In this document: positions 1 to 64,000 of the stretch, in pieces
Numbering within the stretch: position 1 is the stretch's first letter
Layout: every line of letters starts with the position of its first letter
Source: Thermodesulfobacteriota bacterium
GTDB lineage: Bacteria > Desulfobacterota_D > UBA1144 > Nemesobacterales > Mycalebacteriaceae
NCBI GenBank assembly: GCA_965205855.1
Contig: OZ242184.1
Span: 480,001 to 544,000, forward strand
Direction of reading: 5' to 3'
DNA length: 64,000 nt
The notes under the pieces: model-generated
Told to the model about the DNA's origin: nothing
Databases searched by the model: none
The model's input: only the letters and a program-made list of their open reading frames with translations
Program-made: the position numbers and the translations under genes

Positions 1-3000
1 ACCATCAGCGGCACGCCCGCCACCAGCGTGGCCGAAGACAGCGCCTATAGCTTTACGCCAACCGGGGCCGACGATGATGGCGACAAGCTGACCTATGCCA
101 TCACAAACATGCCTTCATGGGCCAGTTTCAGCACCACAACCGGGGCCTTGACCGGCACGCCAGTCAACGCCGATGTCGGCGACCACGAGAACATCGTGAT
201 CAGCGTCACCGATGGCATCATCGCCACACCGGTCGCCCTCGCATCCTTCGATATCGCCGTCACCAACACCAATGACGCGCCCACCATCAGCGGCACGCCC
301 GCCACAACCGTGGCCGAAGACAGCGCCTATAGCTTTACGCCAACCGGGGCCGACGATGATGGCGACAAGCTGACCTATGCCATCACAAACATGCCTTCAT
401 GGGCCAGTTTCAGCACCACAACCGGGGCCTTGACCGGCACGCCAGTCAACGCCGATGTCGGCGACTACGAGGACATCGTGATCAGCGTCACCGATGGCAT
501 CATCGCCACGCCAGTAGCGCTGCCGGCCTTTGCTATCGAAGTCACCAACACCAATGACGCGCCGACGATCAGCGGCACGCCCGCCACAACCGTGGCCGAA
601 GACAGCGCCTATAACTTCACGCCAACCGGCGAAGACGCTGATGGCGACACGCTGACCTGGGCGATCAGCAACAAGCCAGACTGGGCGAATTTCAGCACCA
701 CGACCGGGGCATTGACCGGCACGCCAGACAACGATGATGTCGGCGACTACGCGGGCATCGTGATCAGCGTCACCGATGGCATCATCACCACGCCAGTAGC
801 GCTGCCGGCCTTCGATATCGCGGTCACCAACACCAATGACCCGCCCACCCTCAGCGGCACACCCGCCACCAGCGTGGCCGAAGACAGCGCCTATAGCTTC
901 ACGCCAACCGGCGAAGATGCAGATGGCGACAGGCTGACCTTTGCGATCACAAACATGCCTTCATGGGCCAGCTTCGACACCACAACCGGGGCCTTGACCG
1001 GCACGCCCGTCAACGCCGATGTCGGCGACTACGAGGACATCGTGATCAGCGTCACCGATGGCAGCATCGCCACGCCGGTAGCGCTACCGGCCTTTGCTAT
1101 CGCCGTCACCAACACCAATGACGCGCCCACCCTCAGCGGCACGCCCGCCACCACCGTGGCCGAAGACAGCGCCTATAGTTTCACGCCAACCGGCGAGGAT
1201 GTGGATGTTGGCGATACGCTGGTATATGCGATCACAAACCTGCCGTCATGGGCCAGTTTCAGCACCACAACCGGGGCCTTGACCGGCACGCCCGTCAACG
1301 CCGATGTCGGCGACCACGAGAACATCGTGATCAGCGTCACCGATGGCATCATCGCCACACCGGTCGCCCTCGCATCCTTCGATATCGCCGTCACCAACAC
1401 CAATGACGCGCCCACCATCAGCGGCCCGCCCGCCATCAGCGTGGCCGAAGACAGCGCCTACAGCTTCACGCCAAGCGCTGAAGATGCAGATGGCGACAGG
1501 CTGACCTTTGCCATCACAAACATGCCGCCATGGGCCGCCTTCAGCACCACGACCGGCGCCCTGACCGGCACGCCCGCCAACGAGCATGTCGGCGACCACG
1601 AGGACATCGTGATCAGCGTCACCGATGGCATCATCGCCACGCCGGTCGCGCTGCCGGCCTTTGCTATCGAGGTCACCAACACCAATGACGCGCCCACCTC
1701 GATCGGGCTGACGGTCTCGACAGAAGAGGATACCGCCCACAGCTTTGCGGCAGGCGAGTTCAACTTTGCCGATGTGGACGGCGATGCCCTGCACAGCCTG
1801 CGCATCGACACGCTGCCCGGTAGCGGCAGCCTGACCCTTGACGGCGCTGCGGTGACCGCCGGGGATGTGATCCCCGCCGCCGGGGTCGCGAACCTTGTCT
1901 ATACCCCGGCTGCGAATGCCACCGGCGATGTCAGTTTCACCTTCAGCCTTTCCGACGGCACCGCCTTTGGCGCGACCGCCACGGCAACCGTCACCATCGG
2001 CGCCGTCAATGACCCGCCGACCTCGATCGGGCTGACGGTCTCGACAGAAGAGGATACCGCCCACAGCTTTGCGGCAGGCGAGTTCAACTTTGCCGATGTG
2101 GACGGCGATGCCCTGCACAGCCTGCGCATCGACACGCTGCCCGCAACCGGCAGCCTGACCCTCGACGGCACTGCGGTGACCGCGGGAGATGTGATCGTTG
2201 CCGCTGGTATCGCGAACCTTGTCTATACCCCGGCCACCAATGCCACCGGCGATGTCACCTTCACCTTCAGCCTCAACGACGGCACCGCCTTTGGTGCAAC
2301 CGCCACGGCGACCGTCAGCATCGGCGCGGTCAATGACGCGCCCACCCTCAGCGGCACGCCCGCCACCAGCGTGGCCGAAGACAGCGCCTACAGCTTCACG
2401 CCAAGCGGCGAAGACGCGGATGGCGACAGGCTGACCTGGGCGATCAGCAACAAGCCAGACTGGGCGAATTTCAGCACCGCAACCGGCGCCTTGACCGGCA
2501 CGCCCACCAACGAGCATGTCGGCGCCCACGAGGACATCGTGATCAGCGTCACCGATGGCATCATCGCCACACCGGTCGCGCTGCCCGACTTCGATATCGC
2601 CGTCACCAACACCAATGACGCGCCCACCCTCAGCGGTACGCCCGCCACAAGCGTGGCCGAAGACAGCGCCTATAGCTTCACGCCAACCGCTGAAGATGCA
2701 GATGGCGACACGCTGACTTGGGCGATCAGCAACCAGCCAGACTGGGCGAATTTCAGCACCACAACCGGGGCCTTGACCGGCACGCCCGCCAACGCCGATG
2801 TCGGCGACTACGCGGACATCGTGATCAGCGTCACCGATGGCATCATCGCCACACCGGTAGCGCTGCCCGCCTTCGATATCGCCGTCACCAACACCAATGA
2901 CGCGCCCACCCTCAGCGGCACGCCTGCCACCAGCGTGGCCGAAGACAGCGCCTATAGCTTCACGCCAAGCGGCGAAGACGCGGATGGCGACAGGCTGACC

Positions 3001-8831: not shown

Positions 8832-11800
8832 CTCCACCAGTCGACTAATCCGAGAATCTTAGGAGGCAACAACCCGGTGGAGGGTCAGGCCCTGAGCGCA
8901 TCGATAAGTAATGCCCTGACCGGTCATAGTGTGGGATCCAACCTCGAAGTCTATCGCTGGGAGCGTTCGAGTCCTGGTAGTAGTAGTGGTTTCATTAGTA
9001 TCCCAGGTTTTCGCGCGGGCAATAACAACTACGCCCCGACCCAGTCCGACGTGGGCAGATTTCTCCGAGCGCGTGTCACATTTACTGACAGTCTCACCGG
9101 AGGTGTGACTAGTAGAATAGTCGGTCCCACGTCCAGGGTGGTGGCCAATGCCAATGACGACCCCAGAGGGTTGGCCATCGCTGGTGTCCCGGTTCTGGGT
9201 CAGGAACTGACGGCGAATACCTCCCGCCTTGCCGATGAAGATGGTCTGCCCAACCCGTCCGAATTCACCTATCAATGGAATACGCGGGTCGGCACCACGG
9301 ACACGCCGATTCCCAACGCGACCTCCAGAACCTACACCCTGACCCAGTCCGAGCTCGGTAAGAGAATCACCCTGACCCTCCGCTATACCGATAGTTTTAA
9401 CACGCAGGAGAGTACGACTAGTGCTGCTACGGCGGAGGTGCGCCTCAATGACCCGCCCAGCGGGTTGACCATCGCCGGTGCCCTGACCGTGGGTGAGGAG
9501 CTGACGGCGGATACCTCTACCCTTGCCGATGAAGATGGTCTGCCGGCTGAGTCCGAGTTCAGCTATCAATGGCGGGCCGATGGCGTGGACATCGCCAACG
9601 CCACCGACCGTAGCTATGTCCTGACCCCGGCCAATATCGGCAGTCAGATCACCGTGACCCTCAGCTACACCGATAACCTTAGCAAGCAGGAGAGCCTGAC
9701 CAGCCCGGCCCGTGGCCCGGTGCAGTCTGACAATAATGCGCCGACCATCACGGGCACTCCGCCCGTGGCACAAGTGGGCGCGTCCTACAGTTTCATGCCG
9801 GTGGGCGAGGATGCGGATGGCGATACGCTGATCTATACCCTCAGCGGCGCACCCGGCTGGCTTAGTATCAACCCCACCACCGGAGCCCTGACCGGCACGC
9901 CGGGCAACGCCGATGTCGGCACCACCACAGGGATTGTGATCGACGTTACCGACGGCATCATCGCCGCGCCGGTGGAACTGGCGTTTGCGCTCACCGTCAA
10001 TGGCCCGCCCACCGGCGAGGTGATCATCCTGGATAGTGGCCGACCGATCGTGGGTCAGGTTCTGACAGCGGATGCCTCCGGCCTTGGCGATGCCAATGGT
10101 CTGTCCGACCGATCCGCGTTCAGCTACCAATGGTTTGCGGACAGCGCGCCGATCAGGGGAGCGAACCTGCGCACCTACACCCCGGACGAGGTAGGCGAGG
10201 TAATTTTCGTGATTGTCAGCTATACCGATGACGATGGCGTGGATGAGGACGTGTCCAGTGCGAGCATCAGGGTGTTCAACCAACTGCCCACCGCGGATGC
10301 CGGTCCGAATCAGAGCTTGAGCAAAGGCACAGAAGTCACGCTTGATGGCAGTGGCAGTTCCGATCCCGAGGGCGCGAGCCTGACCTATCTCTGGTCGCAG
10401 GTTGACGGCACTACGGTGACTTTAAGCAGTACGACGGCAGCACGGCCAACGTTCACCATACCAAACCTGATACCGACAGATGATCCGGACTCGCTTACTT
10501 TCAGTCTGGTCGTCTCTGACGTGCATGATGCATCGTCCACCAACGAGGAAACCGTCAGAATTTTTATCAGACCGCTGTTTCGGGAAGCCATTGCCGATCA
10601 AACCTACAACCTGGGCAATGAGATTGATGATCTGATGTTGCCTGCGGCACTGACGCAAGAGGGCACCTCGGGGGATGTCTATGCGCTGTCCTCTGTGCCC
10701 GCCGGGCTCTCCTTTGATCCTGCCACCCGCATATTGTCCGGTACGCCGACAGTGCTTGGGATGTTTGGCTTGACCTACACCGTAACGACTGCGGACGGTG
10801 GAACCGATACACTGGAATTTTCCATCACCATCACTGCGGTCAACAACCCGCCCACAGGCGTGGTGACCATCGATGGCATTTTGACCGAGGATGAAGTCCT
10901 GACGGCAAACACCTCCACCCTTGCCGATGAAGATGGTCTGCCCGCTGAGTCCACATTCACCTATCAATGGCTTGCGGATGGCGTGGAGATTCCCGGTGCG
11001 ACCCTGCGCACCTACATCCTGACCTCGGACGAGGCCGGTAAGACCATCAGCCTGGTCGTCCGCTATACCGATCTTCGGAGTAGTGAAGAGGAAGTGACCA
11101 GCGCACCGCGGGGGCCGATGAATACCCCGCCGATCATCAGCGGCATCCCCGCCACCACGGTGGCCGAAGACAGCGAATACAACTTCACACCGGAGGGCAT
11201 GGATGCGGATGGCGATACCTTGGTGTATGCCATCACGGTCACACCCGACTGGGCCGATTTCAACCCCGTCACGGGGGCACTGACCGGCACGCCCACCAAC
11301 GATGATGTCGGCACCACCACCACAGGAATTGTGATCAGCGTGACCGACGGCATCATCGCCGCGCCGGTGGAACTGCCGGCGTTTAACCTCACCGTGACCA
11401 ACACCAACGACGCGCCCACCGGCACGGTGATCATCCGCGGTAACCTGGTCATGGGCGAGGAACTGACGGCGGATACCTCTGCGCTGGGCGATGAGAATGG
11501 TCTGCCCGCTGAGTCCACATTCACCTATCAATGGAATACGCGGGACGGCGCCACGGACACACCGATTCTCGGTGCGACCCTGCGCACCTACACCCTGACT
11601 CCGAACGAGGTTGACCGGGTGATCACCGTGCTCGTCCGCTATACCGATGATGATGGCACGGCTGAGCGCGTGACCAGCGCACCGCGTGGGCAGGTGGTAG
11701 GCAGCAACGAAGCGCCGACCATCGGCGGCACGCCCGCCACCACGGCGGCCGAAGACAGCGAATACCGCTTCACACCGGAGGGCATGGATGCGGATGGCGA

Positions 11801-45857: not shown

Positions 45858-45923
45858 AAACAAATTAAATTTATAGTTGCAAAATGTTCGGAAGAAGAAT
45901 AAAATAACTTCTCAATAATAAAT

Positions 45924-54900: not shown

Positions 54901-57900
54901 TGCCGCCTGGACTGTCCTTTAATACTACTAACCGCACACTGTCTGGTACGCCGACCCAGTCTGGAACCTTTGACCTGACCTACGTCGCGACGAGTAGCAT
55001 TGGCACGGATTCACGCAGCTTTAGCATTGCGGTGGTTGACCCCGTGACGGTTTCCATTGCGCCCCCTGGCGCCGCAGTCGATGAAGGCGATCCCGCGACC
55101 TTCACCGTGACCCTGTCGGGTTCTCCCACGGATGAAGTGGTGGTGGACTATGCCACCTCGCCCGACACGGCGGTGGCGGCTGATTTCACCGATACCGACG
55201 GCACGCTGACCTTCGCGGCAGGCGCGACCGACCTGAGCCAGGACATCAGCGTACCGACGACGGACGATAGCGAGACCGAGGGCGATGAGACCTTCACCCT
55301 GACCCTGAGTGCGAACACCAACAGCCCACTACCGGCAGGTGTCACTCTGGACACGACCACGGCCCAGGCGACCATCGCAGCCAGCGATGCGCCGGTCAAC
55401 AACCCGCCCACCACCAGCGCGTTCACGGTCACCACAAACGAGGATACCGACTACACCTTTGCGGTGGCCAACTTCCCCTTTGCCGATACCGACACGGGCG
55501 ATATGCTGGAGCAAGTGCGCATCGATAGCCTGCCCGACGGCGCCGACGGCAACCTGACCCTGAACAACACAGCGGTCATCGTGGCCCAAGAGATTGCCGT
55601 TGCGGATATTCCGAACCTGGTCTATACCCCGGTGACCAATGTCAACGGCACGGACAGCTTCACCTTCAGCGTCTCCGACGGCACTGCCTTTAGTGCCACG
55701 CCCGCCACGGCAACCGTCACCATTAACTCGGTCAATGATGATCCTAGTGGCGAGGTGACGATCAGCGGCATTCCCCGGGTGGGGGAGACCCTGACGGCGA
55801 ACACCGCCGGCATTACCGATGCCGATGGCCCTGCTACTCTGTCATTCACCTATCAATGGCTTGCGGGTAACACTCCTATCAGCAACTCGGACTCCCCGAC
55901 CTACATCCTGACCGGGAACGAATTAGGCGAGATGATCAGCGTGGATGTCAGCTACATGGATGCCGATGGCTTTGAGGGAGGTTTTGTCAGTGACCCCGTC
56001 GGACCGGTGGTGGCTGCAAGCACCCCGAATACCCCGCCGACCTCGAGCGATCTGGCGGTCACCATAGACGAGGATACCCCCCATACCTTTGCGGTGGCCG
56101 ACTTCCCCTTTAGCGATGTCGACACCAGCGACAGCCTGCAACAGGTGAGCATCGATAGACTGCCTACAACCGGCAGCCTGACCCTCGGTGGCGCATCGGT
56201 TAGAGCGGGGCAAGAGATTGCCGTTGCCAGTATTCCGAACCTGTTCTATACCCCGGTCGCAAATGCCAACGGCACGGACACCTTCACTTACAGAGTCTCT
56301 GACGGCACTGCCTTCAGTGCGGTAGCCACGGCAACCATCACCATTAACGCGGTCAATGACGATCCCACCGGCACGGGTCTGACAGTGCCGGGCTTGAGTC
56401 TGGCCGGGGGCGCACAGACGGTTGATTTGAATAGTGTGTTTAGCGACCCTGACGGCGATACGTTGAGCTACGAGGCAGAGTCTGATGATGAAGACATCGT
56501 TACGGTAGCGGTAGCGGGCAGTATGCTGACCATAACCCCGGTGGGTGCCGGTACGGCGACGCTGACGCTCAGGGCCAATGATGGCAATGGTGGCACGGTC
56601 GAGCAGACGGTGATGGCAACGGTGGGCAACAGTGCTCCCACCACCAGCGGTCTGGCGGTCACCACCGACGAGGATGCCGAATATACCTTTGCGGTTGTCG
56701 ACTTCCCCTTTACCGATGCCGACGGCGATAATTTGCAACAGGTGCGCATCGATAGCCTGCCCGCCAGCGGTAGCCTGACCTTGGGCGGTACGGCGGTTAA
56801 CGAGGGGCAAGAGATAGCCGTTGCGAATATTCCGACCTTGGTCTATACCCCGGTGGTCAATGCCAACGGCGATGTGACCTTCGACTTCAGCGTCTCCGAC
56901 GGCACTGACTTCAGTGAGTCCTCCACGGCGGTCCTGACCATAGAAGCGTCAAATGACCCTGCGACGGGATTGCCTACAATTACGGGCACGGCGAACGAGG
57001 GAGAGGAACTGACGGCGGATGTCTCTGGTATTGAGGATATAGATGGTCTGCCCGAGCTGTCCATGTTCACCTATCAATGGAATACGCGGGTCGGGAGCAC
57101 GGACACGCCGATTAACAACGCGACCACCGAAACCTACACCCCGACCGAGGACGAGGTGGGCGAGTTTATCACGGTGACGGTCTTCTTCACAGATGGCGGT
57201 GGCACGCGTGAAAGCCTTACAAGTGAGTCAACGATGGAGGTGACAGATATTGTCAGGGTGTTAACGATGGACGAGGCGTTGCGTCTCAACGCGGAGCCAC
57301 CGACCACGGACACGACGGGAAGTATTATCACGTTGTCGACCAGCGAAGAAGTAATCCTTGATAACGCTAATGGTGAGGATTTCACCGTTACCTCAACCCT
57401 GAATGGCGAAACAGTACCTCACGAGGTTACCGGTATCAGGGCGGGCAGTATCGTACTGGAGGTGACTCCGGCAATCGGGTTCGGGTCTCTCATCGGAGTT
57501 TCCTATAATCCGGTTCAAGGTTCCATTACGGGTGCCGTTACGGGCAATCCGGTGGTTCCGTTCAGTATAAGTGTGAACAACGCGGTACGGCCGTTGAATG
57601 AAGACCTGGATCGTGAAGGGAGGAAAACGTTGCTGACGCACCTTGCGGGTGTTCAGAGCGATCTGGTGATAAGTACGGTACAGAACCACCTGAGGGCGCT
57701 GGACGGAGGCAACCGTGTGAGCGTTCCACGACATGCGGGTGTAGAGACAGAGGGAGAAGGCAAATACGTTGAATACGAGAACGTCCGTGAGATGCTGTCT
57801 CATCTGGAGTTTGATCTTTCCCTGAACAGTCTGATGGGGTTGAATGAGGAGTGGCGCAAGATCGGTATTTCGTCCGCCGGGGCAGAGGGTTCGTTAGCGC

Positions 57901-59006
57901 CGGTTGTGGGAACTGATTTGTCATCGCCGCGGACACTTACCCTGTGGGGAGGAGGAGGCGAGACGCGTCTGGACAACGATTACAATACATCCGGTGACGA
58001 CAATCGCTATGACGGTCGTGTGTGGTCTTACAACACAGGTTTGGATTACCGTCCCTCGGAGTCTTTGACCTTGGGTGCGGCAGTGGGTTATCTGGACAGT
58101 GAACTGACGACCACCTACAACGAAGGCACCTATGATGAGAAGATGGTATCGGTGTCACCGTACCTGCTGTATGAGAGTCCGTGGGGTCTGGATATATCCC
58201 TGTTTGGGGGCTACGGAATAGGAGATGTTGACCTGACGGGGACGTTTGGGCAGGCGAGCACGCCGTTCGCGGCCTCTGCCGACAGTAATCTGTTATTTGG
58301 CGCGGTGCGTGTGTCGGGTGCGATGAAGTTTTTGGATAACAGTTTGGAAGTGGTACCGAATGTGAGTCTGCTCGGCAGTCGCAAGAGGCTGGAGGGATAT
58401 ACGGACAGCAGCAACCGTGAGATTGGTGAGACCACGGCGTCAGTGCTTCGCCTGACTCCGGGTTTTGAGGTGAGTTACCGTGTGAAGTTTTCAGGAGTAA
58501 CGTTGAGGCCGTTTGCGAGCGGAGGTTTGATATTTGATTTATTAGATACGGTGAATGATGACGATATGACTTACAGTGTTGGCGGTGGAATGCGTTTTGA
58601 AACCGAGGTGGGTTTGAGCGGTTCTGTGGAGGGTCAGCGTGAGCTGGGTCGTGAAGCGGTAGAGCAACGGCGCTTTGTGGGCGCGTTGTCTTACGGTATT
58701 GCTGTGGGCAGGAATGGGAGAGCGGGGACTGTGACGCCGTCTGTAGGTATTAATCACGCATCCGGGGATGATGTGTCTGCAGAGGGATTGTCACAGGCAT
58801 ACGTGCTGGAATACACCACGAGAGGTGGAGGCCACAGTATTAGTTTTGAGCATGACAGGTCGGAAGAGGAGGGAGCGCGTTCCGGTCTGGGTTATCGTTA
58901 CGGAGCAGAGATTATGCCGGGATTGAACTTGGAGGCAACAGTGTCGTCCCCGAATGTTGAAAAACGTGAGGTTAAGGGATTTGTTGGCATGAAACTCCGG
59001 TTTTAA
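45924..59006 (+). CDS. Large (4,360 aa) Ig/cadherin-repeat autotransporter-like adhesin, gene 3
   Basis: Signal peptide paralogous to gene 2 (MPVKKRHISDFMLTCLRVVAGFCALVLFSLGLSATAAHA). Cadherin-like, Calx-beta, PKD-like and He_PIG-like modules. The barrel cassette ends in ...GMKLRF. Confidence 0.9.
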   Translation: MPVKKRHISDFMLTCLRVVAGFCALVLFSLGLSATAAHAVHEVQGFSLTGTPIQGGTLTVTGTNLTSGHPGEIPVYSWRYFTGAPLSETSNTYQLTQADVGRFLIVSVSTGDQTRSLGTLDEIVNSNLRPTGTVPITGNLSENETLGVNLSGLRDDDGLPNRSTFSYQWSRSDAGTNLVSISGATGRTYTLTQSDVGNHITLTISYTDRENRQETYRTTTSGQIANVNVPPTGLPAISGTRTEGRTLTAITDAIEDRDGLENAVFTYQWNTRIGSTDTPISGATQRTYIPTQADVGRMVTVTVRYTDDENSAEGPLTSAPTTVFAQQQTTRALSATVTPLSITPGDGPVEMFPDLTVIGTIPNLVQIRVLNRGDLVNEDAVTTPFVRLHDPVVPGFNFQASPTNITSDSRVFTSFAQEPPSQNAEAWQTLLRSVAFQAPADTGGRKIQLRVEASYDNGSSYLNMLSRTLNIVGPAPNNPPTSSGLAVSTPEDTPYTFEADDFPFTDADTGDRLQRVSINDLPARGTLTLGGGAVLAGQVINVTAIPTLVYTPPENANGDDIFTYSVYDGTTFSTATTMATITINPVNDPPTGAVTIDGMPAQNQTLTAVTDAIVEPDGLENAVFTYQWNTRVGSTDTPISNATSETYTLTQGDVGEMITVTVRYTDAGGEDEGPLTSAPTEAVANVNDPPVGTAITLPVPSVTGGAETVDLNSIFTDPDGDALIYTASSGDESVLRVSVTDSTLTLIPVTRGTATLTLRANDRNGGNGELRIVATVGNSPPIIPEIVLPVFTSFSGEQGPFELSDIPRGVDPDGDITTYTVVSDDLNIAEGMIDASHPLYRLFVTPFDIGNANLTITANDGNGGTDTRVVAVQVLGFNRSPVRTMVVPMVPELSLPAGPQEVELSGTYTDPDGDDDALTYQAVFFDTEDPNPDFEEEDVVTWAVTGSTLTLTPVGPGTLRLGIRALDSRLPPGRAGGLILPVTVINSPVSGNVIIDGVPERDQTLTADTSGISDADGPDPLPFTYQWNRNNGTTSEPIPGANEETYTLTDDDVGNSISVTVDYTDRGGTDEGPLTSTLTAQVIGTVAVSIAPPDAPVDEGEDATFTVTLSHSTANDIVLNYATSVAPEDTAEQSDFMATSSTLTFSPGAALSQTFTVSVEDDELVEGDETFTATLSANSASPLPVGVSLATATAQATIAANGTATVSVISGGNTVPEDQDITFAVQLSGAPGSDVVVNYTASVEAGDTAMASDFTETTGTLTFPAGTSELSQTFTVGVVNDNLPEDNETFTVTLSENPDNPLPAGFTLDMDMQTARGTIAASDEATISLAGPRDPVIEGENAVFTVTLSASPVGDGLTVGFSTSIESDDTAQANDFTETSGAQTFFMGTNALTQTIVVPVTDDNEVENSETFTLTLMNDGDGGSVFPPGFILNPSASSAKAAIVGRNNAPTTVGLGALIDEDTSHTFVADDFNFTDADMSDMLEQVRIDSLPATGDLTLNGTAVNAMQEITVTDIDNGSLVYTPADNVNGASTFDFSLSDGTDFSESAVATILIRAVNDEPSGTVTISGTARVGETLMANTGGISDVDGPDPLTFTYQWNTHSGGVDTAISGANSATYTPTTGDEGEMITVTARFTDDGGMRESLTSAPTAAVAMMSPPPPLPDLSGTTTPLPVTPGGDAVVVFPDLVVSDADANPVVIRVRVENPDDLNAGDTLAFSGTPNTSGIQVQFFPAAGIIGTSNDTLFGGFASGTPPGADRWQGLLRNLTFAAPAGSGGREIRLFVQVRYSLSGSDSSDTLTRTLNIGAPAANSPPTGLPTITGTPRVGVTLTANTSGISDADGPDPLPFTYQWNTHAGGTDTAINNATSATYLLTADEMGDQITVSVRYTDAGNTNEGPLTSVPTAAVAMMSPLELSGTTTPLPVTPGGAPVAIFPDLSIDTGRPNTFRLRVESAANLNSGDAVTLAAAAERRNYDILFIPIASVGASQNIIVGVSTPDNDDEAPERWHNLLRHFTFQAPAGSGGREVRFIAELTVSDLVSGNDVVETLTRTLTISAPANTPPTTSGLTVTTLEDTAYTFAAGNFNFNDADSGDNLVEVRIDSLPASAGGSLALSGTAVIAGQVIPVAGIPNLRYTPALNVNGAATFTFSVSDGTDFSTPPATATVTVNAVNDDPSGTVTITGTATVGETLTANTDGISDADGPDMLSFTYQWLAGGIPINNATSPTYLLTGDELGEMISVDISYMDANDIEGGVVSDPVGPVLAADMVTVSIAGPGASVDEGDPATFTVTLSGSPADEVVVNYATSDETATEGSDFTAPAADAALTFAANTTTLTQDINIATTDDSDTEGDETFTLTLSAPSGGFPAGVTLGTTTAQATIAASDAPANTPPTSTTDLAVTGLTVTSGAQTFDLEDNFDDADSSDTLTYTADSGNETIFTVAVAGSMLTITPVSRGTATLTLTADDGNGGTISQTPSVTVNNSRPTARAGSDSTADKGSLITLDGSGSSDPDASDMLTYLWTQQPGSTPVTLSDPTAEQPTFTIPTVIERGFTFVFRLVVSDGALSSTNRAEVTIFTRPIFPFPTTLDDQTYVVGNQIDDLTLPTALDIFGNPNTYALSPLPPGLSFNTTNRTLSGTPTQAGTFDLTYTATSNFGTDSRSFSIAVINLPTITGTPTEGEELTADASAIIAANGLDESDISYQWQADGVDIANATSITYTLSTDDIGKRITVTASFTVGATSEERTSAPTAAVAAPGNIPATGEPTISGILQVGQTLTADTSGIVDADGPAAPAFSYQWQADGQDIAGATAITYIPTAGDVGDVITVTAIFTDDVGTREERTSAPTAVIQTNTRPTANAGSGSTGAKGSLITLDGSGSNDPDGDNANLTYLWTQVPLDNGGGIPVTLSDPTAQQPTFTIPTVIEREFTFRFNLVVNDGALSSTNTARVEIFTRPRFGFPETLVDQTYVVGNQIDDLTLPTALDTVGNPNTYALSPLPPGLSFNTTNRTLSGTPTQSGTFDLTYVATSSIGTDSRSFSIAVVDPVTVSIAPPGAAVDEGDPATFTVTLSGSPTDEVVVDYATSPDTAVAADFTDTDGTLTFAAGATDLSQDISVPTTDDSETEGDETFTLTLSANTNSPLPAGVTLDTTTAQATIAASDAPVNNPPTTSAFTVTTNEDTDYTFAVANFPFADTDTGDMLEQVRIDSLPDGADGNLTLNNTAVIVAQEIAVADIPNLVYTPVTNVNGTDSFTFSVSDGTAFSATPATATVTINSVNDDPSGEVTISGIPRVGETLTANTAGITDADGPATLSFTYQWLAGNTPISNSDSPTYILTGNELGEMISVDVSYMDADGFEGGFVSDPVGPVVAASTPNTPPTSSDLAVTIDEDTPHTFAVADFPFSDVDTSDSLQQVSIDRLPTTGSLTLGGASVRAGQEIAVASIPNLFYTPVANANGTDTFTYRVSDGTAFSAVATATITINAVNDDPTGTGLTVPGLSLAGGAQTVDLNSVFSDPDGDTLSYEAESDDEDIVTVAVAGSMLTITPVGAGTATLTLRANDGNGGTVEQTVMATVGNSAPTTSGLAVTTDEDAEYTFAVVDFPFTDADGDNLQQVRIDSLPASGSLTLGGTAVNEGQEIAVANIPTLVYTPVVNANGDVTFDFSVSDGTDFSESSTAVLTIEASNDPATGLPTITGTANEGEELTADVSGIEDIDGLPELSMFTYQWNTRVGSTDTPINNATTETYTPTEDEVGEFITVTVFFTDGGGTRESLTSESTMEVTDIVRVLTMDEALRLNAEPPTTDTTGSIITLSTSEEVILDNANGEDFTVTSTLNGETVPHEVTGIRAGSIVLEVTPAIGFGSLIGVSYNPVQGSITGAVTGNPVVPFSISVNNAVRPLNEDLDREGRKTLLTHLAGVQSDLVISTVQNHLRALDGGNRVSVPRHAGVETEGEGKYVEYENVREMLSHLEFDLSLNSLMGLNEEWRKIGISSAGAEGSLAPVVGTDLSSPRTLTLWGGGGETRLDNDYNTSGDDNRYDGRVWSYNTGLDYRPSESLTLGAAVGYLDSELTTTYNEGTYDEKMVSVSPYLLYESPWGLDISLFGGYGIGDVDLTGTFGQASTPFAASADSNLLFGAVRVSGAMKFLDNSLEVVPNVSLLGSRKRLEGYTDSSNREIGETTASVLRLTPGFEVSYRVKFSGVTLRPFASGGLIFDLLDTVNDDDMTYSVGGGMRFETEVGLSGSVEGQRELGREAVEQRRFVGALSYGIAVGRNGRAGTVTPSVGINHASGDDVSAEGLSQAYVLEYTTRGGGHSISFEHDRSEEEGARSGLGYRYGAEIMPGLNLEATVSSPNVEKREVKGFVGMKLRF
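57600..59006 (+). repeat. Constant translocator cassette, copy 3 (1,407 bp, extra 18 bp at 57894-57911)
   Basis: Same start motif. Contains an extra ttagcgccggttgtggga (LAPVVG). Confidence 0.95.
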
Positions 59007-59216
59007 AACCAAGGCGTTTTCCCGTCTTGCTGTCGTAAGAGAATGACTTTGTAGTTGTGGGTTTTCCAACGCCACAAGCGGTTAATGTAAATAGTTTGCC
59101 AAAAGTATTACCAGACATGGCGGTGTTATACCCTAGCCTGTGCAATTAGGTTAAAGACACTTTTAGTCAGTTGCCAGAGATGGCGTTTGAGGCGAGTAGT
59201 CGTTCTATTTAAGAAC

Positions 59217-59245
59217 TTGACAGTGAAAAATACCTAAACTACACT
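59217..59245 (+). promoter_or_regulatory. Putative sigma70 promoter for gene 4
   Basis: Perfect -35 TTGACA (59217-59222), 17-bp spacer and -10 TACACT (59240-59245), in the only long intergenic region. Confidence 0.65.
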
Positions 59246-59269
59246 TTGTATCTACAATTGGCACAGTGT

Positions 59270-59291
59270 GTGGTTTGATCGATCAAACCAC
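59270..59291. promoter_or_regulatory. Perfect 22-bp palindrome GTGGTTTGATC|GATCAAACCAC (operator or 5'-UTR hairpin)
   Basis: Exact reverse-complement symmetry about 25 bp downstream of the -10 box. The function is inferred. Confidence 0.6.
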
Positions 59292-59427
59292 TGGCAAACT
59301 ACAAGACGGTTTATAGAATGCAACTTAACCTAAGCGATAATGACTAGTCCTACTGTTAGGAAAATACCCATAAATAAGTCCGTCAAAACCTGGCGCACCA
59401 GTCTCCTGAGCGGGCATTGTACGAAGC

Positions 59428-59433
59428 GGAGAG
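59428..59433 (+). promoter_or_regulatory. Shine-Dalgarno-like site for gene 4
   Basis: GGAGAG lies 5 nt upstream of the ATG at 59439. Confidence 0.55.
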
Positions 59434-59438
59434 TATGC

Positions 59439-62400
59439 ATGGCTACTTCAAAATCTTCCCCATCGCCATTTCATTTTTTAGAGACAGCCTTCCTATCCAC
59501 TGCGCGTTTCTGCGTCGCAGCTTTTTTTTTGCTGATACTCTCGGCAACCGGGGCCAGTGCGCAGAACACCCTGCCCACCGGAGTACCGACCATTAGCGGC
59601 ACTCTGATCGAAGGCAGGGAACTGACGGCGGATACCTCGGGCATCAGCGATGCCGATGGCCCCGATCCCCTGCCGTTCACCTATCAATGGAACCGGAACG
59701 ACGGAACCACGGATACGGCAATCAGCGGCGCGGACTCTGCAACCTACACCCTGACCCAGGACGATGTCGGCGAGATGATCACCGTGACCGTCCGCTATAC
59801 CGATGCCAATAACACCAACGAAAGCCTGACCAGCGCGCCCACGTCGGCGATTACGGCGAATATGCCGCCCACCGCCAATGCCGGTTCAAATCAGAGGTGG
59901 GGCAAGGGCACAGAAGTCACGCTTGATGGCACGGGCAGTGACGATCCCGATGGCGATAATGCGGCCCTGACCTACCTTTGGGAACGGACTGCCGGCGCCA
60001 CCACGGTGACTTTAAGCGATACGACAGCCGCACAACCAACCTTCACCATTCCAACCCTGATACCGTCATCCGTCCCGGCCTCGTACACTTTCAGGCTGAT
60101 CGTTAGTGACGGGCAGGCATCGTCCGCCGCCGCCACCGTCAGAATCTTTATCAGACCGCTGTTTCAGGCAACCATCGCCAATCAGACCTTCAGCGTGGGC
60201 AATGCAATTACGCCTATAACTTTGCCCGAGGCGCGGGACGGGCCCAATTCATTGCCAAGTACCAATACCTATACGCTGGCTCCTCTGCCGGCTGGACTGG
60301 CCTTTGATCCTGCCAGCCGCACACTGTCTGGTACGCCGAGCAATCTTGGGACGTACAACCCGGTCTACACCGCGACAAATGGGGACGGAGACACGGATTC
60401 ACTGAGCTTTAGCATTGAAGTGACCACCAATACCCCGCCCACCACAACCGGGCTGACGGCCACGACTGCTGAGGACACCCCCTATACCTTTGCGGCGGGT
60501 AATTTCAACTTCGACGATGCCGAAAGCGGCGATAGCCTGCAACAAGTGCGCATCGCTACGCTACCCGCCAGCACCAGCGGCAGCCTGGCGCTGAACGGTA
60601 CGCTGGTCACCGTGCCCCAAGAGATTGCCGTTGCCGATATTCCGAATCTGGTCTATACCCCGGCGCTCAATGTCAACGGCGCTGCGACCTTCACCTTCAG
60701 TGTCTCCGACGGCACCGCCTTCAGTACCACCGCCACGGCAACCATCACCGTGACCGCGGTCAACGACCCGCCCATCATCGCCCAGGGGCTGACGGTGCCT
60801 GGCCTGGGTCTGACAGGGGGCCCACGGACGTTTGATCTGAGTAGCCTGTTTAGCGACATCGATGGCGATGCTCTGACCTACACCGTAAGCATCAGTAATG
60901 GAAGCGTGGCCTTTGTGACGGTCATCGCGGGCAGTGTGCTGAACATTGCCCCGCGAAACGAAGGCACCACAACCATCACGATCACGGCCGATGATGGCAA
61001 TGGCGGCACTGCCGAGCAGGTGGTGACCGTAACGGTGGTAGAAGCCCTCCCCACCGCTGTGATTACCTCAAATTACGACAGTCTGGTGAGGCTTGAGAGC
61101 GGATTTGAAGGTGTAGATGGTGGCGTTACCATCACATTTGACGGCAGCGCCAGTTTCGATCCCAGTGGCGCTCCTCTGACTTACCGCTGGGAGATGATTA
61201 ACTCCGATAACACCGGGGTTGACCTGGTGGGTACCGAAGCGATCTTTGAATTCACTACACCGCCCCGAATGGTGGGTCGAGTGCAAATGTTTCAATTTAC
61301 TCTCGTCGTAACCAACACTGTTACTAATTTCAGTTCACCCGGTTTCCCACACGGGCTCCCACCTATCGTTAACGTCACGGTCTTGCCGACTGGTGCCAAT
61401 AATGACCCCACCGGGTCACCGACCATCACTGGCAGCCTGAGCCAGGGCCAGACCCTGACGGCGTCGCGCGGCGACATTCAAGACCCCGATGGTCTGGTTA
61501 ATGTGGTTTTCAGTTATCAATGGAATAGGCACGATGCCGGCATGGACACGCCGATCAGCGGGGCCACCGGGAGCAGCTACCGGCTGACCCCGGACGATGT
61601 GGACGAGTTGATCACCGTGACCGCCAGCTATAGAGATAACCAACGAACCGACGAAAGTGTGACCAGTGCTCCCGTCGGGCCGGTGGCGGCGCCCGCTCTC
61701 CCCCCCAGCGCTGTGATTACCTCAAATTACGACAGTCTGGTGAGGCTTAATAACGGATCCAGGGGCGTAGACGGTGGCGTCACCATCCGGTTTGACGGCA
61801 GCGGCAGTTCCGATCCCGGTGGCGGTTCCCTGATCTACTCCTGGCGGTTGCTTGACACCGAGACCGGCGGGTTTACCGAGCTGGGCACCGAAGCGACCTT
61901 TGAATACACCACACCGTCCCGAATGACTGAATCTCAAGATTTTCTAATCTATCTCGTCGTGACCAACACTGCTAATCTGAGTTCACCCGGGTTGGCAGAT
62001 TCTGAGACCATCAGTGTCTTTCCGGATAGCAGCAATGCCCCACCCAGCGGATTACCGACCGTTAGCGGCAACGCGACCCTGGGCGCAACCCTGACGGTGA
62101 ATACCTCCGGCATCAGCGATGCCGATGGCCCTGCTAATCTGTCATTCACCTATCAATGGAATACGCGGGTCGGGAGCACGGACACGCCGATCAGCGGAGC
62201 CACCGGGAACAGCTACCAGCTGACCCCGGACGAAGTGGGCGAGTTGATCACCGTGACGGCCCTGTATACGGATAATCAAATCACCGACGAAAGTGTGACC
62301 AGTGATCCCGTCGGGCCAGTGGCGTTGGCTGGCACTGGCGCGAATACCCCGCCCACCTCAAGCGGGCTGTCGGCTACGATAAACGAGGATACCTCCTATA

Positions 62401-64000
62401 CCTTCGCGACGGGCGACTTCACCTTTAACGATGCCGACGGCGATAGCCTGCAACGGGTGCGCATCGATACCCTGCCCGGTAGCGGCAGCCTGGCCCTGAA
62501 CAACGTAGCCGTCATCCTGGGGCAAGAGATTGCCGCCACCGCTATCCCCAATCTGGTCTATACCCCGGGCGCAAACGTTAATGGCACGGACAGCTTCACC
62601 TACAGCGTCTCTGACGGCACTGACTTCAGTGCCACATTCGCTACGGCAACCATAGCCATTAACGCGGTCAACGACGACCCCACTGGCGAGGTGACCATTA
62701 GCGGCATCCTGGCCGAGGGTCAGACCCTGACGGCGAACACCGACAGCATCAGCGATGCCGATGGCCCTGCTAGCCTGTCATTCACCTATCAATGGTTTGC
62801 GGGTACCAGTCAGATCAGCGGCGCAAACATGAGAACCTACACCCCGACCCAGGGCAATGTGGGCCAGATGATCAGCGTGGACGTCAGCTACATGGATGCC
62901 AATGGCATTGAAGGAGGTTTCTTCAGTGGTCCCGTCGGACCGGTGCTGGCGGCCAATGCTCCCCCCGTCGCTGTGGTTACCTCAGATTACGACAGTCTGG
63001 TGAGCACTACTTTAAATTTTAGTGGCGTAGATGGTGGCGTCACCATCACATTTGACGGCAGCGGCAGTTTCGATCCCAGTGGCGCTCCTCTGACTTACCG
63101 ATGGGAAACGCTTAACTCCGCGAGCACCGGGGTTGTAGTGGTGGGTACCGAAGCGATCTTTGAATACACTACACCGCCCCGAATGGTGGGTCGAGTGCAA
63201 GTGTTTCAATTTGCTCTCGTCGTGACCAACACTGTTAGTAATGTCAGTTCACCCAATTTCCTATCCGGGAACGCACCCATCACTTCTGTCTCGGTCTGGC
63301 CGGATGGCAATAACGACCCCACCGGGTCACCGACCATCACTGGCAACCCGACCCAGGGTCGGATCCTGACGGCGTCGCCCGGCGACATTCAAGATACGAA
63401 TGGCCTGACTAATGTGGTTTTCAGCTATCAATGGAATAGGCACGATGCTGGCACGGACACGCCGATCAGCGGGGCCACCGGGGACAGCTACCGGCTGACC
63501 CCGGCCGATGTGGGCGAGGAGATCACCGTGACCGCCAGCTATAGAGATAACCAACAAACCGACGAAAGTGTGACCAGTGCTCCCGTCGGGCCGGTGGCGG
63601 CGCCCTCTCTTCCCCCCAGCGCTGTGGTTACCTCAAATTACGACAGTCTGGTGAGGCGTGATAGCGGAGAGGAGGGCGTAGACGGTGGCGTCACCATCCG
63701 GTTTGACGGCAGCGCCAGTTCCGATCCAGGTGGCGGTTCCCTGACCTACTCCTGGCGGTTGCTTAACACCGAGACCGGCGGGTTTACCGAGCTGGGTACC
63801 GAAGCGACCTTTGAATACACTACACCGACCCGAATGGCTCAAGCTCAAAATTTCCTGATCCAGCTCATCGTGACCAACTCTGCTGGTATAAGTTCGCCCG
63901 AGTTGGCAAATCCTGAGGTTGTCAGGGTCTTGTCGGATAGCGGCAATACCCCACCCACCGGATTACCGACCATTAGCGGCAACGCGGCCGTGGGCGCGAC
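59439..64000 (+). CDS. Ig/cadherin/PKD-repeat surface protein, gene 4 (3'-partial, at least 1,520 aa); probable fourth paralogue
   Basis: Read by hand: ATG at 59439 gives MATSKSSPSPFHFLETAFLSTARFCVAAFFLLILSATGASA-QNTLPTGVPTISG... The same frame holds at every point checked up to the window end, which explains its absence from the track. GGAGAG at 59428-59433 precedes the ATG. An alternative in-frame ATG lies at 59340. No barrel is visible in the window. Confidence 0.85.
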   Translation, partial: MATSKSSPSPFHFLETAFLSTARFCVAAFFLLILSATGASAQNTLPTGVPTISGTLIEGRELTADTSGISDADGPDPLPFTYQWNRNDGTTDTAISGADSATYTLTQDDVGEMITVTVRYTDANNTNESLTSAPTSAITANMPPTANAGSNQRWGKGTEVTLDGTGSDDPDGDNAALTYLWERTAGATTVTLSDTTAAQPTFTIPTLIPSSVPASYTFRLIVSDGQASSAAATVRIFIRPLFQATIANQTFSVGNAITPITLPEARDGPNSLPSTNTYTLAPLPAGLAFDPASRTLSGTPSNLGTYNPVYTATNGDGDTDSLSFSIEVTTNTPPTTTGLTATTAEDTPYTFAAGNFNFDDAESGDSLQQVRIATLPASTSGSLALNGTLVTVPQEIAVADIPNLVYTPALNVNGAATFTFSVSDGTAFSTTATATITVTAVNDPPIIAQGLTVPGLGLTGGPRTFDLSSLFSDIDGDALTYTVSISNGSVAFVTVIAGSVLNIAPRNEGTTTITITADDGNGGTAEQVVTVTVVEALPTAVITSNYDSLVRLESGFEGVDGGVTITFDGSASFDPSGAPLTYRWEMINSDNTGVDLVGTEAIFEFTTPPRMVGRVQMFQFTLVVTNTVTNFSSPGFPHGLPPIVNVTVLPTGANNDPTGSPTITGSLSQGQTLTASRGDIQDPDGLVNVVFSYQWNRHDAGMDTPISGATGSSYRLTPDDVDELITVTASYRDNQRTDESVTSAPVGPVAAPALPPSAVITSNYDSLVRLNNGSRGVDGGVTIRFDGSGSSDPGGGSLIYSWRLLDTETGGFTELGTEATFEYTTPSRMTESQDFLIYLVVTNTANLSSPGLADSETISVFPDSSNAPPSGLPTVSGNATLGATLTVNTSGISDADGPANLSFTYQWNTRVGSTDTPISGATGNSYQLTPDEVGELITVTALYTDNQITDESVTSDPVGPVALAGTGANTPPTSSGLSATINEDTSYTFATGDFTFNDADGDSLQRVRIDTLPGSGSLALNNVAVILGQEIAATAIPNLVYTPGANVNGTDSFTYSVSDGTDFSATFATATIAINAVNDDPTGEVTISGILAEGQTLTANTDSISDADGPASLSFTYQWFAGTSQISGANMRTYTPTQGNVGQMISVDVSYMDANGIEGGFFSGPVGPVLAANAPPVAVVTSDYDSLVSTTLNFSGVDGGVTITFDGSGSFDPSGAPLTYRWETLNSASTGVVVVGTEAIFEYTTPPRMVGRVQVFQFALVVTNTVSNVSSPNFLSGNAPITSVSVWPDGNNDPTGSPTITGNPTQGRILTASPGDIQDTNGLTNVVFSYQWNRHDAGTDTPISGATGDSYRLTPADVGEEITVTASYRDNQQTDESVTSAPVGPVAAPSLPPSAVVTSNYDSLVRRDSGEEGVDGGVTIRFDGSASSDPGGGSLTYSWRLLNTETGGFTELGTEATFEYTTPTRMAQAQNFLIQLIVTNSAGISSPELANPEVVRVLSDSGNTPPTGLPTISGNAAVGA
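59522..59530 (+). repeat. T9 homopolymer in the signal-peptide coding region of gene 4
   Basis: gca gct ttt ttt ttg. This is the longest homopolymer I noticed in the window. Confidence 0.85.

Follow-up and report, generated by a model that had tools for sequence, protein, structure and literature searches.

The question raised by this 64,000-nucleotide (nt) stretch, referred to here as the window, which comes from contig OZ242184.1 of a Thermodesulfobacteriota bacterium, is what its giant tandem genes encode and how so repetitive a locus was built. In our reading, to which we give a probability of roughly 75%, the window lies in a lineage-specific island of five tandem paralogous autotransporters of the classical (type Va-like) kind, with giant passengers made entirely of immunoglobulin (Ig)-like domains, and this island was built by recombination. 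The source genome is designated G000, and the window corresponds to G000:C1:480001-544000.

Four open reading frames (ORFs) on the + strand fill the window (1-8619, open at the 5' end; 8715-45857; 45924-59006; and 59340-63998, open at the 3' end), and the large antisense ORFs all lie inside these genes, in GC-rich repeats. An initial annotation of the window proposed at least four co-oriented paralogues. ORF mapping across the source genome, a single contig of 1,401,274 nt with a 49.7% GC content (98% complete, 0% contamination), bears this out and raises the number to five: co-oriented genes A to E, with five copies of a C-terminal cassette, span 128,755 nt or 9.19% of the genome. The window therefore covers only part of the array, which extends beyond both of its ends (Table 1).

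Gene A, of which the 3' part lies in the window (1..8619), carries He_PIG-like 282-nt tandem modules, cadherin-like and Calx-beta modules, and then the cassette. Gene B has a signal-peptide-like N-terminus of 39 amino acids (aa), approximately 122 Ig-like modules and the cassette; gene C combines a B-like signal peptide with Ig-like and Calx-beta modules and the cassette; and gene D has a divergent N-terminus. By eye, a hydrophobic core can be made out in each N-terminus from A to E, with A-H-A or A-S-A after it. Genes B to D had been assigned a common signal-peptide family, and this holds for B and C (33 of 42 aligned residues identical), but gene D resembles them only weakly (12-13 of 29 residues). 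Genes B, C and E have common 5' ends. Gene E is interrupted twice outside the window, by an exact 46-nt tandem duplication at G000:C1:561104-561195 and by a frame change shortly upstream of G000 580556 (about 580490); it may be a dead copy or an off state.

What unites the five genes is the cassette, approximately 1.39 kb long and found five times in the genome, once at the end of each gene, at 97-98% nucleotide identity. The initial annotation described near-identical copies in genes A to C, spaced 37.2 and 13.1 kb apart, and suggested a genome search for more, which yielded five copies in total. By self-megablast of the window, 7230-8625 matches 44468-45863 at 98.2% over 1,396 nt and 7230-8680 matches 57599-59067 at 98.0% over 1,469 nt; the start-to-start distances are 37,238 and 13,131 nt, as described. 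Genes B and C have a longer common tract (43506-45863 and 56637-59012, 97.1% over 2,376 nt), and the 3' tract common to all five genes measures 1.4-2.7 kb at 95-98%. Family PF03797 (Autotransporter) is matched in the three window cassettes at 78.1-82.9 bits against a cut-off of 26 (protein Pfam scan), and a six-frame family search of the genome gives 81-85 bits for all five copies. Each of the five proteins ends in KLRF; outer-membrane barrels typically end in an aromatic residue. Judged by sequence homology to PF03797, the cassette belongs to the classical autotransporter family, possibly with an atypical number of strands. The Pfam match ends at profile position 219 of 255, leaving 137 residues C-terminal to it, and an extension of approximately 100 residues past the profile is also present in cassette relatives of approximately 600 aa. 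No POTRA, patatin or two-partner secretion (TPS) family was detected in cassettes or passengers by Pfam scans, so the domains expected of type Vd and Vb systems were not seen.

An AlphaFold2 (AF2) model of the 462-aa cassette, made from an input alignment of 53 sequences, has a mean predicted local distance difference test (pLDDT) score of 78.3 and consists of an N-terminal helix (residues 2-34) followed by a barrel. Its top structural matches are EstA (Z 19.1), EspP (18.7), AaaA (18.4) and NalP (17.5) (Foldseek, VIA); these alignments run from model residue 1 to approximately 355, and those of EspP, NalP and EstA start at residues 1-4, taking in the predicted N-terminal helix. A model of the barrel only (pLDDT 84.5) is predicted to have approximately 16 long strands. 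When this model was searched against 48,161 chains, alignments across the whole of it (residues 6..367) were obtained with two 16-stranded barrels, FhaC (Z 17.7) and CdiB (Z 16.9 and 16.3), whereas the 12-stranded EstA, NalP, AaaA, EspP and Hbp (Z 13.7-14.6) covered only 7..253-266 of 367 residues; BrkA (Z 15.0) reached residue 339 with 221 residues aligned. The gap in Z is less than 3, and it is obtained with predicted models only.

The passengers are built almost entirely of Ig-like modules. Pfam scans of them return only Ig-like or beta-sandwich families (He_PIG, Big_9, Cadherin_3/4/5, Calx-beta, K319L-like PKD/PKD_4, IG_AIR9/SCAB-Ig and Bact_surface_Ig-like), and the same Ig-like family set is found in all four window genes. 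Our own iterated profiles, built from the five proteins and with overlapping hits and hits shorter than half the profile dropped, gave 427 non-overlapping matches, 24 of which are pieces of the cassette, leaving approximately 403 passenger modules in seven main families. The order string of these modules differs in every gene. The proposal that a constant export part is joined to passengers that arrange the same module types differently is upheld. The main component of gene A is its 87 He_PIG-like units, the 282-nt tandem units matching at 87-90%, and gene D has, downstream of its N-terminus, 291-nt and 276-nt units in arrays at 93-99% identity; genes B, C and E consist mostly of heterogeneous modules rather than of one repeated unit. 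A super-module, 'dppdp-S(11-12)-aaaba', occurs twice in gene B and once in gene E. Gene B also carries an internal segmental duplication that includes two 288-nt arrays (Table 1), the second of which adjoins a 1.6-kb block (39598-41216) that is 97.1% identical to 31873-33491. DNA identity between genes is commonly only 60-77% for modules of a given type.

Cassette and passengers also differ in the constraint on their sequences. Across the ten pairs of cassettes, the synonymous divergence (dS) is 0.012-0.049, and the ratio of nonsynonymous to synonymous divergence (dN/dS) is 0.09-0.30 in nine; the value of 0.73 for the A-C pair rests on only 13 differences. Passenger dN/dS is 0.72-0.94 in all five comparisons of paralogous blocks and 0.95-1.16 in comparisons with genes of metagenome-assembled genomes (MAGs), described below. 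These sequence comparisons indicate that the cassette is under purifying selection and that the passengers are near-neutral.

Mosaic blocks, a duplicated unit, staggered homology boundaries and incompatible site splits show that the array genes have recombined with one another in the past. When matches within the locus are limited to those of 400 nt or longer with 93% or higher identity, gene E holds one block that is like gene B (B:17596-25493 and E:12461-20358; 7,905 nt, 98.9%) and another that is like gene C (C:7447-9815 and E:20945-23328; 2,392 nt, 93.9%), indicating that gene E is a B/C chimera. A 3,904-nt stretch made up of the end of gene A, the A-B spacer and the opening 2.4 kb of gene B has a 97.4%-identical counterpart in the end of gene D, the spacer after it and the start of gene E; this 3.9-kb unit of cassette, spacer and N-terminus is the footprint of a duplication running from a cassette to the N-terminus of the next gene. 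In an alignment of the five genes over their last 2.7 kb, high identity sets in approximately 2.5 kb upstream of the stop codon for C-D, 2.3 kb for B-C and 2.0 kb for E, while gene A shares only the 1.39-kb cassette. The five cassettes have 24 informative and 24 singleton sites, and the informative sites form five 2+3 splits (AC 8, AD 7, BE 4, BD 3 and DE 2). Six pairs of splits are mutually incompatible and the splits are clustered spatially (AD lies at the 5' end, AC in the middle), a pattern that requires exchange between copies.

Trees of the modules add to this picture. They were built with FastTree from alignments of 70-100 columns, and changes of gene label along them were counted against shuffled labels. 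With gene E included (100 shuffles), the observed changes and shuffle means are 12 and 10.0 for family F14, 9 and 10.3 for F12, 25 and 23.7 for F3, and 53 and 47.4 for F1. With gene E removed, they are 10 and 10.4 for F3 (89 of 200 shuffles as low), 4 and 5.3 for F5 (31 of 200), 4 and 5.6 for F12 (9 of 200), and 16 and 20.6 for F1 (1 of 200), and no family is at the minimum possible number of changes. The initial annotation staked its proposal partly on such trees, and no family clusters strictly by gene, though the He_PIG-like and PKD-like modules largely do.

These results can be set against a simpler account, in which a few recent duplications gave rise to a paralogue family that is now stable: cassette identity would reflect recency together with purifying selection rather than gene conversion that still goes on, and there would be no adaptive diversification. 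Such a static family would fit the low cassette dN/dS, the largely gene-wise clustering of the two module families just named, the finding of no dedicated recombinase or diversity-generating retroelement (DGR) in the genome, and joints in public sequencing runs that are inseparable from repeat artefacts. We nevertheless consider it unlikely, as it sits poorly with incompatible site splits clustered along the cassette, with homology boundaries that are staggered and specific to each pair, with the union of B-like and C-like blocks in gene E, and with passengers that elsewhere are 60-77% identical between genes when the cassettes are 97-98% identical.

Could the array instead be a product of assembly, with repeats mis-joined or over-expanded and the number or order of genes wrong? 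The locus is extremely repetitive, and public runs offer only short contigs, none of those listed spanning a whole junction. Part of the stretch is contained in six of the nine public runs listed, from four studies, only as short (Logan) contigs; over 42500-60500 the unique parts of these match with 0-2 differences. At the joints in these contigs, the sides measure 19-43 nt and lie within repeated modules; such joints are indistinguishable from repeat artefacts and carry no weight in either direction as to deletions, circles or chimeras. An artefact is very improbable given that the genome is one 1.40-Mb contig of high completeness with no contamination, that the five cassettes differ from one another at the informative and singleton sites described above, that each gene has long unique stretches and a frame left unbroken over as much as 37 kb, and that short contigs from other runs match the unique parts of the window so closely.

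The broken state of gene E suggests a further scheme, programmed antigenic variation of the pilE/pilS type, in which few genes would be expressed and gene E, perhaps with others, would be an archive donating modules by unidirectional conversion. Systems of the pilE/pilS type have one expression locus and promoterless, truncated donor cassettes. Gene E is disrupted twice yet keeps its 98.9%-identical blocks with B and its 93.9%-identical block with C, and the spacers are short, with no terminator-like sites found between the genes. In the array, however, genes A to D are complete ORFs, each with its own start and putative signal peptide, and only E is broken; no single expression site is evident and no promoterless truncated cassettes were seen. 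We regard this scheme as having very little chance of being correct.

The second part of the question is where the array came from. The aldehyde dehydrogenase and MTAP genes that flank it are 131.5 kb apart in G000, whereas their orthologues are 1.7-2.5 kb apart in four of five congeners, indicating that the array is a lineage-specific insertion. The fifth congener, G001, is without the dehydrogenase orthologue and carries a different autotransporter, of 1,140 aa, 3 kb from its MTAP orthologue (match G001:C1:689449-690165); the insertion site may be prone to autotransporter genes. PF03797 matches number from 1 to 16 in each of the congeners G001-G005, whose genomes are 1.2-1.6 Mb. The cassette query found no close relative among 40 related genomes, the only matches being weak ones in congener G005 (24-26% identity).

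Relatives of the cassette were found farther afield. Among 1.84 billion representative proteins there were 324 matches at E <= 0.001, of which P0005 (5,115 aa, 66% identity; its modules were classified with our own module profiles) is the only large non-self match, the next tier being 500-680 aa long at 35-40% identity. A cassette scan of metagenome contigs found no relative, and one of genome contigs found two loci, L001 and L002, both in MAGs of Alphaproteobacteria and with cassettes at 60-62% identity (tblastn). The L001 protein is 2,318 aa long and that of L002 is 3,123+711 aa, with Calx-beta/He_PIG passengers, and the module strings of the MAG genes, h10-a-C(n)-2345, match both ends of gene A. 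L001 also has a 667-aa autotransporter downstream that is not matched by the cassette query, which has one match in L001. On its - strand, at L001 2-2803 (G041:C5:118875-138956), there is a very large gene beside the gene A-like autotransporter, with modules at 67-92% DNA identity to gene C.

The similarity of gene A to L001 is uneven in a way that points to transfer. Residues 2-1204 of gene A are 79% identical to the L001 protein, with 88.9% DNA identity over 3.6 kb; in this segment, identity at 567 four-fold sites is 93%, dS is 0.109 and dN/dS is 1.08. Between the same two genomes, four-fold identity is 55% for the cassette (53-55% overall), 26% for PNPase and 33% for RecA, the latter two proteins being 53% and 66% identical in amino acid sequence. 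The contrast between 93% in the gene A segment and 26-33% in housekeeping genes indicates a recent horizontal import. Other segments in common include L001 2096-2666, which matches gene C 4986-5553 at 92%, and modules of G042 that are 85-89% identical to gene C. GC content at third codon positions (GC3) is 0.70-0.78 in the passengers, above that of all 526 background ORFs (0.527 +/- 0.054, maximum 0.676) and matching that of the MAG flanks (0.65-0.80); that of the cassette (window 7231-8616) is 0.57, near the genome background. On these sequence data, the simplest reading would be that horizontal exchange with a high-GC lineage took place in two layers or more, the cassette family belonging to an older one and the passengers to a recent one, and composition suggests that the direction of transfer was into G000. 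GC-biased gene conversion, in its simple version, was considered as the cause of the high passenger GC3 and rejected, since the visibly converted cassette has a GC3 of only 0.57. The import of passenger DNA, the nature of the locus as an inserted island and the broken fifth gene all go beyond the initial annotation.

A bolder interpretation starts from the barrel. It takes the resident cassette, kept by purifying selection, to be an unrecognised class of barrel with approximately 16 strands that serves as a fixed anchor, onto which passengers from a module pool shared by distantly related bacteria have been repeatedly grafted and then reshuffled. We hold this to be doubtful. If it is true, a genome of 1.4 Mb could, by means of a plug-in anchor, produce fibres half a micrometre long and of up to 12,380 aa, renewed by exchange between lineages and by internal recombination.

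Returning to the island of recombined classical autotransporters, a course of events can be proposed for both product and locus, that of the product following what is established for autotransporters. Each product would be exported by Sec via its predicted N-terminal signal peptide; its C-terminal cassette, with linker helix, beta-barrel and terminal Phe, would insert into the outer membrane, and its passenger of 40 to approximately 120 tandem Ig-like beta-sandwich modules would be threaded out. Given its Asp-rich, cadherin-like and Calx-beta motifs of the Ca2+ type, the passenger is likely to become a stiff fibre at the cell surface that serves in attachment. On this reading, the history of the array includes in-frame tandem expansion of modules and, at the cassettes, segmental duplication or unequal crossing-over; conversion between copies keeps the cassette nearly identical, exchange of blocks between paralogues made chimeras such as gene E, and foreign high-GC passenger DNA was imported.

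The history of rearrangement can be read from the sequence, and from it we infer that rearrangement may be continuing. The initial annotation went further and described a recombination-driven diversification system; its recombination is borne out as a matter of the past, by the mosaic blocks and incompatible splits, but no dedicated machinery for a working system was found. The 98%-complete genome has no reverse transcriptase (PF00078 (RVT_1), 0 matches), the enzyme by which a DGR would be recognised. Of its three tyrosine recombinases, the nearest lies at 389 kb, 67 kb from the array; otherwise only the general RecA and AddAB are present. Present rearrangement would thus rely on general homologous recombination and replication slippage. 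With RecA and direct repeats of 1.4-2.4 kb at 97-98% identity, deletion and duplication of whole genes are expected in the population.

Several points weigh against our reading. The locus could be the frozen product of past events, and two module families sort mostly by gene: without gene E, label changes are 15 against a shuffle mean of 38.6 for F4 (He_PIG-like) and 4 against 10.6 for F6 (PKD-like), and none of 200 shuffles is as low. The module trees carry no support values, and noise inflates apparent mixing, so that with such short alignments and without branch support the mixing of modules is overstated. A passenger dN/dS close to 1 agrees equally well with relaxed constraint and with diversifying selection, which pairwise dN/dS counts cannot separate. 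The host-like GC3 of the cassette beside the unusual GC3 of the passengers is a split that the model does not explain. As to class, the signal peptides were assessed by eye alone, and the predicted barrel looks larger than the canonical 12 strands, so that strict type Va membership is only tentative.

Compared with known systems, the array shares with the classical type Va autotransporters EstA, EspP, NalP and AIDA-I the predicted order of signal peptide, passenger, linker helix and C-terminal beta-barrel. It differs in its all-Ig-like passengers of up to approximately 11,900 aa and in a predicted barrel of approximately 16 rather than 12 strands. According to the available part of a 2022 review of type Va proteins, their passengers are mostly beta-helical and fall into three types, none of them Ig, with lengths of 280-3,333 aa in the largest adhesin group; 'Ig-like' and 'cadherin' do not occur in that text (PMC9289746). 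Full-text literature searches found no paper on He_PIG autotransporters or on giant Calx-beta/cadherin-like ones. The autotransporters L001, L002 and P0005 of the Alphaproteobacteria MAGs belong to the same cassette family (60-67% aa identity) and have the end architecture of gene A; unlike the array genes, they are single genes in 21.5-kb loci, shorter and compositionally native to high-GC genomes.

The nearest precedent for a recombining array is provided by the Bartonella vomp/badA loci. At B. quintana vomp and B. henselae badA, tandem adhesin paralogues with conserved ends undergo whole-gene deletion in infection and reshuffling driven by repeats, and frameshifted copies occur, as described in the part of the source available (PMC10936683). 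In the array, too, co-oriented paralogues lie in tandem, and their conserved ends allow recombination. Vomp/BadA proteins differ in being trimeric type Vc adhesins, with coiled-coil stalks and a 3x4-strand anchor, and are approximately 10 times smaller; their variation has been observed experimentally, whereas we infer that of the array.

Other giant adhesins resemble the array in part. Periscope proteins are single-chain rods of near-identical tandem domains whose repeat number is thought to be altered by homologous recombination (PMC9704523, in the part available), and genes A and D have tandem repeats of comparably high DNA identity (87-99%). The Gram-negative examples in the same part of that source are inverse autotransporters, unlike the array. 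These type Ve proteins, such as intimin and invasin, have passengers of tandem bacterial Ig-like (BIg) domains, a beta-barrel anchor and a variable repeat number (PMC9704523), but their barrel is N-terminal and their passenger C-terminal; the array has the classical order. Giant repeats-in-toxin (RTX) adhesins of the SiiE, MpIBP and LapA class form Ca2+-stiffened fibres of tandem Ig-like domains, hundreds of kDa to MDa in mass, according to the parts of two sources available (PMC7493085, PMC6272769). They are exported by a type I secretion system (T1SS) through a C-terminal RTX signal, whereas the array has a C-terminal autotransporter barrel and no RTX repeats are reported in it by Pfam.

What is new here is the combination of giant all-Ig passengers with a recombining tandem array; the export logic is already known. 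If the products are made, classical autotransport would extend far past known passenger sizes and folds, with implications for the way in which passengers cross the outer membrane and for the possible involvement of a larger barrel. An organism that devotes 9.2% of a 1.4-Mb genome to these genes probably needs to attach to a partner or host. As a compact natural case, the locus would also let three processes be measured side by side: the conversion of its constant part, the near-neutral turnover of what varies, and the recent import of adhesin modules across lineages.

Table 1. Coordinates of the array genes, cassette tracts, tandem arrays and spacers (window positions unless marked G000).
Feature	Position	Strand	Remarks
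Gene A	G000 456877-488619	+	10,580 aa; 3' 8.6 kb = window 1..8619
Gene B	G000 488715-525857; window 8715..45857	+	12,380 aa
Gene C	G000 525924-539006; window 45924..59006	+	4,360 aa
Gene D	G000 539340-553817; 5' 4.7 kb = window 59340..64000	+	4,825 aa
Gene E	G000 553913-585631	+	broken: three ORFs, 2,418, 6,461 and 1,691 aa
Cassette copy 1	7230..8680	+	linker helix, autotransporter beta-barrel (462 codons, ...KLRF end), ~60 nt of shared 3' flank
Extended constant tract, gene B	43506..45863 (2.36 kb)	+	cassette proper 44468-45863
Extended constant tract, gene C	56637..59067	+	cassette proper 57599-59012, then shared 3' flank
288-nt tandem array, Bact_surface_Ig-like	28645..31615	+	copy 1 of the internal segmental duplication of gene B
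288-nt tandem array	36574..39605	+	copy 2 of the internal segmental duplication of gene B
A-B spacer	8620..8714 (95 nt)	+	part of the 3.9-kb unit recurring at the D-E junction (97.4%)
C-D spacer	59007..59339 (333 nt)	+	only long spacer in the array

Scans of the three window spacers for promoters and terminators gave weak promoter-like matches only and no terminator-like site, and tRNA and Rfam scans of the 64-kb window found no tRNA and no Rfam family. The C-D spacer contains a perfect 22-nt palindrome (GTGGTTTGATC/GATCAAACCAC) at 59270-59291, approximately 48 nt upstream of the start of gene D and adjoining a promoter-like site at 59217-59245; the palindrome may be a binding site for a regulator.

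Two further autotransporters lie outside the array, with barrels that are not close to the cassette. One, of 2,963 aa (G000:C1:6216-15104, + strand), is made of Ig module types that also occur in the array (AIR9-like, PKD-like and He_PIG) and has a GC3 of 0.676, the maximum of the background; the other is an 825-aa ORF (G000:C1:234822-235520, - strand). The flanks of the array encode a type II Cas1, the aldehyde dehydrogenase, a tetratricopeptide repeat (TPR) lipoprotein, a sugar kinase, MTAP and RsmG, as well as a nuclease, a major facilitator superfamily (MFS) transporter, a glycosyltransferase and AddAB. The Cas1 gene belongs to a type II CRISPR-Cas locus that neighbours the array, approximately 25 kb upstream of the window (G000:C1:450625-454678, - strand), in which Cas1 is intact and Cas9 is split into ORFs of 467 and 554 aa that match TIGR01865 positions 1-448 and 495-1068.

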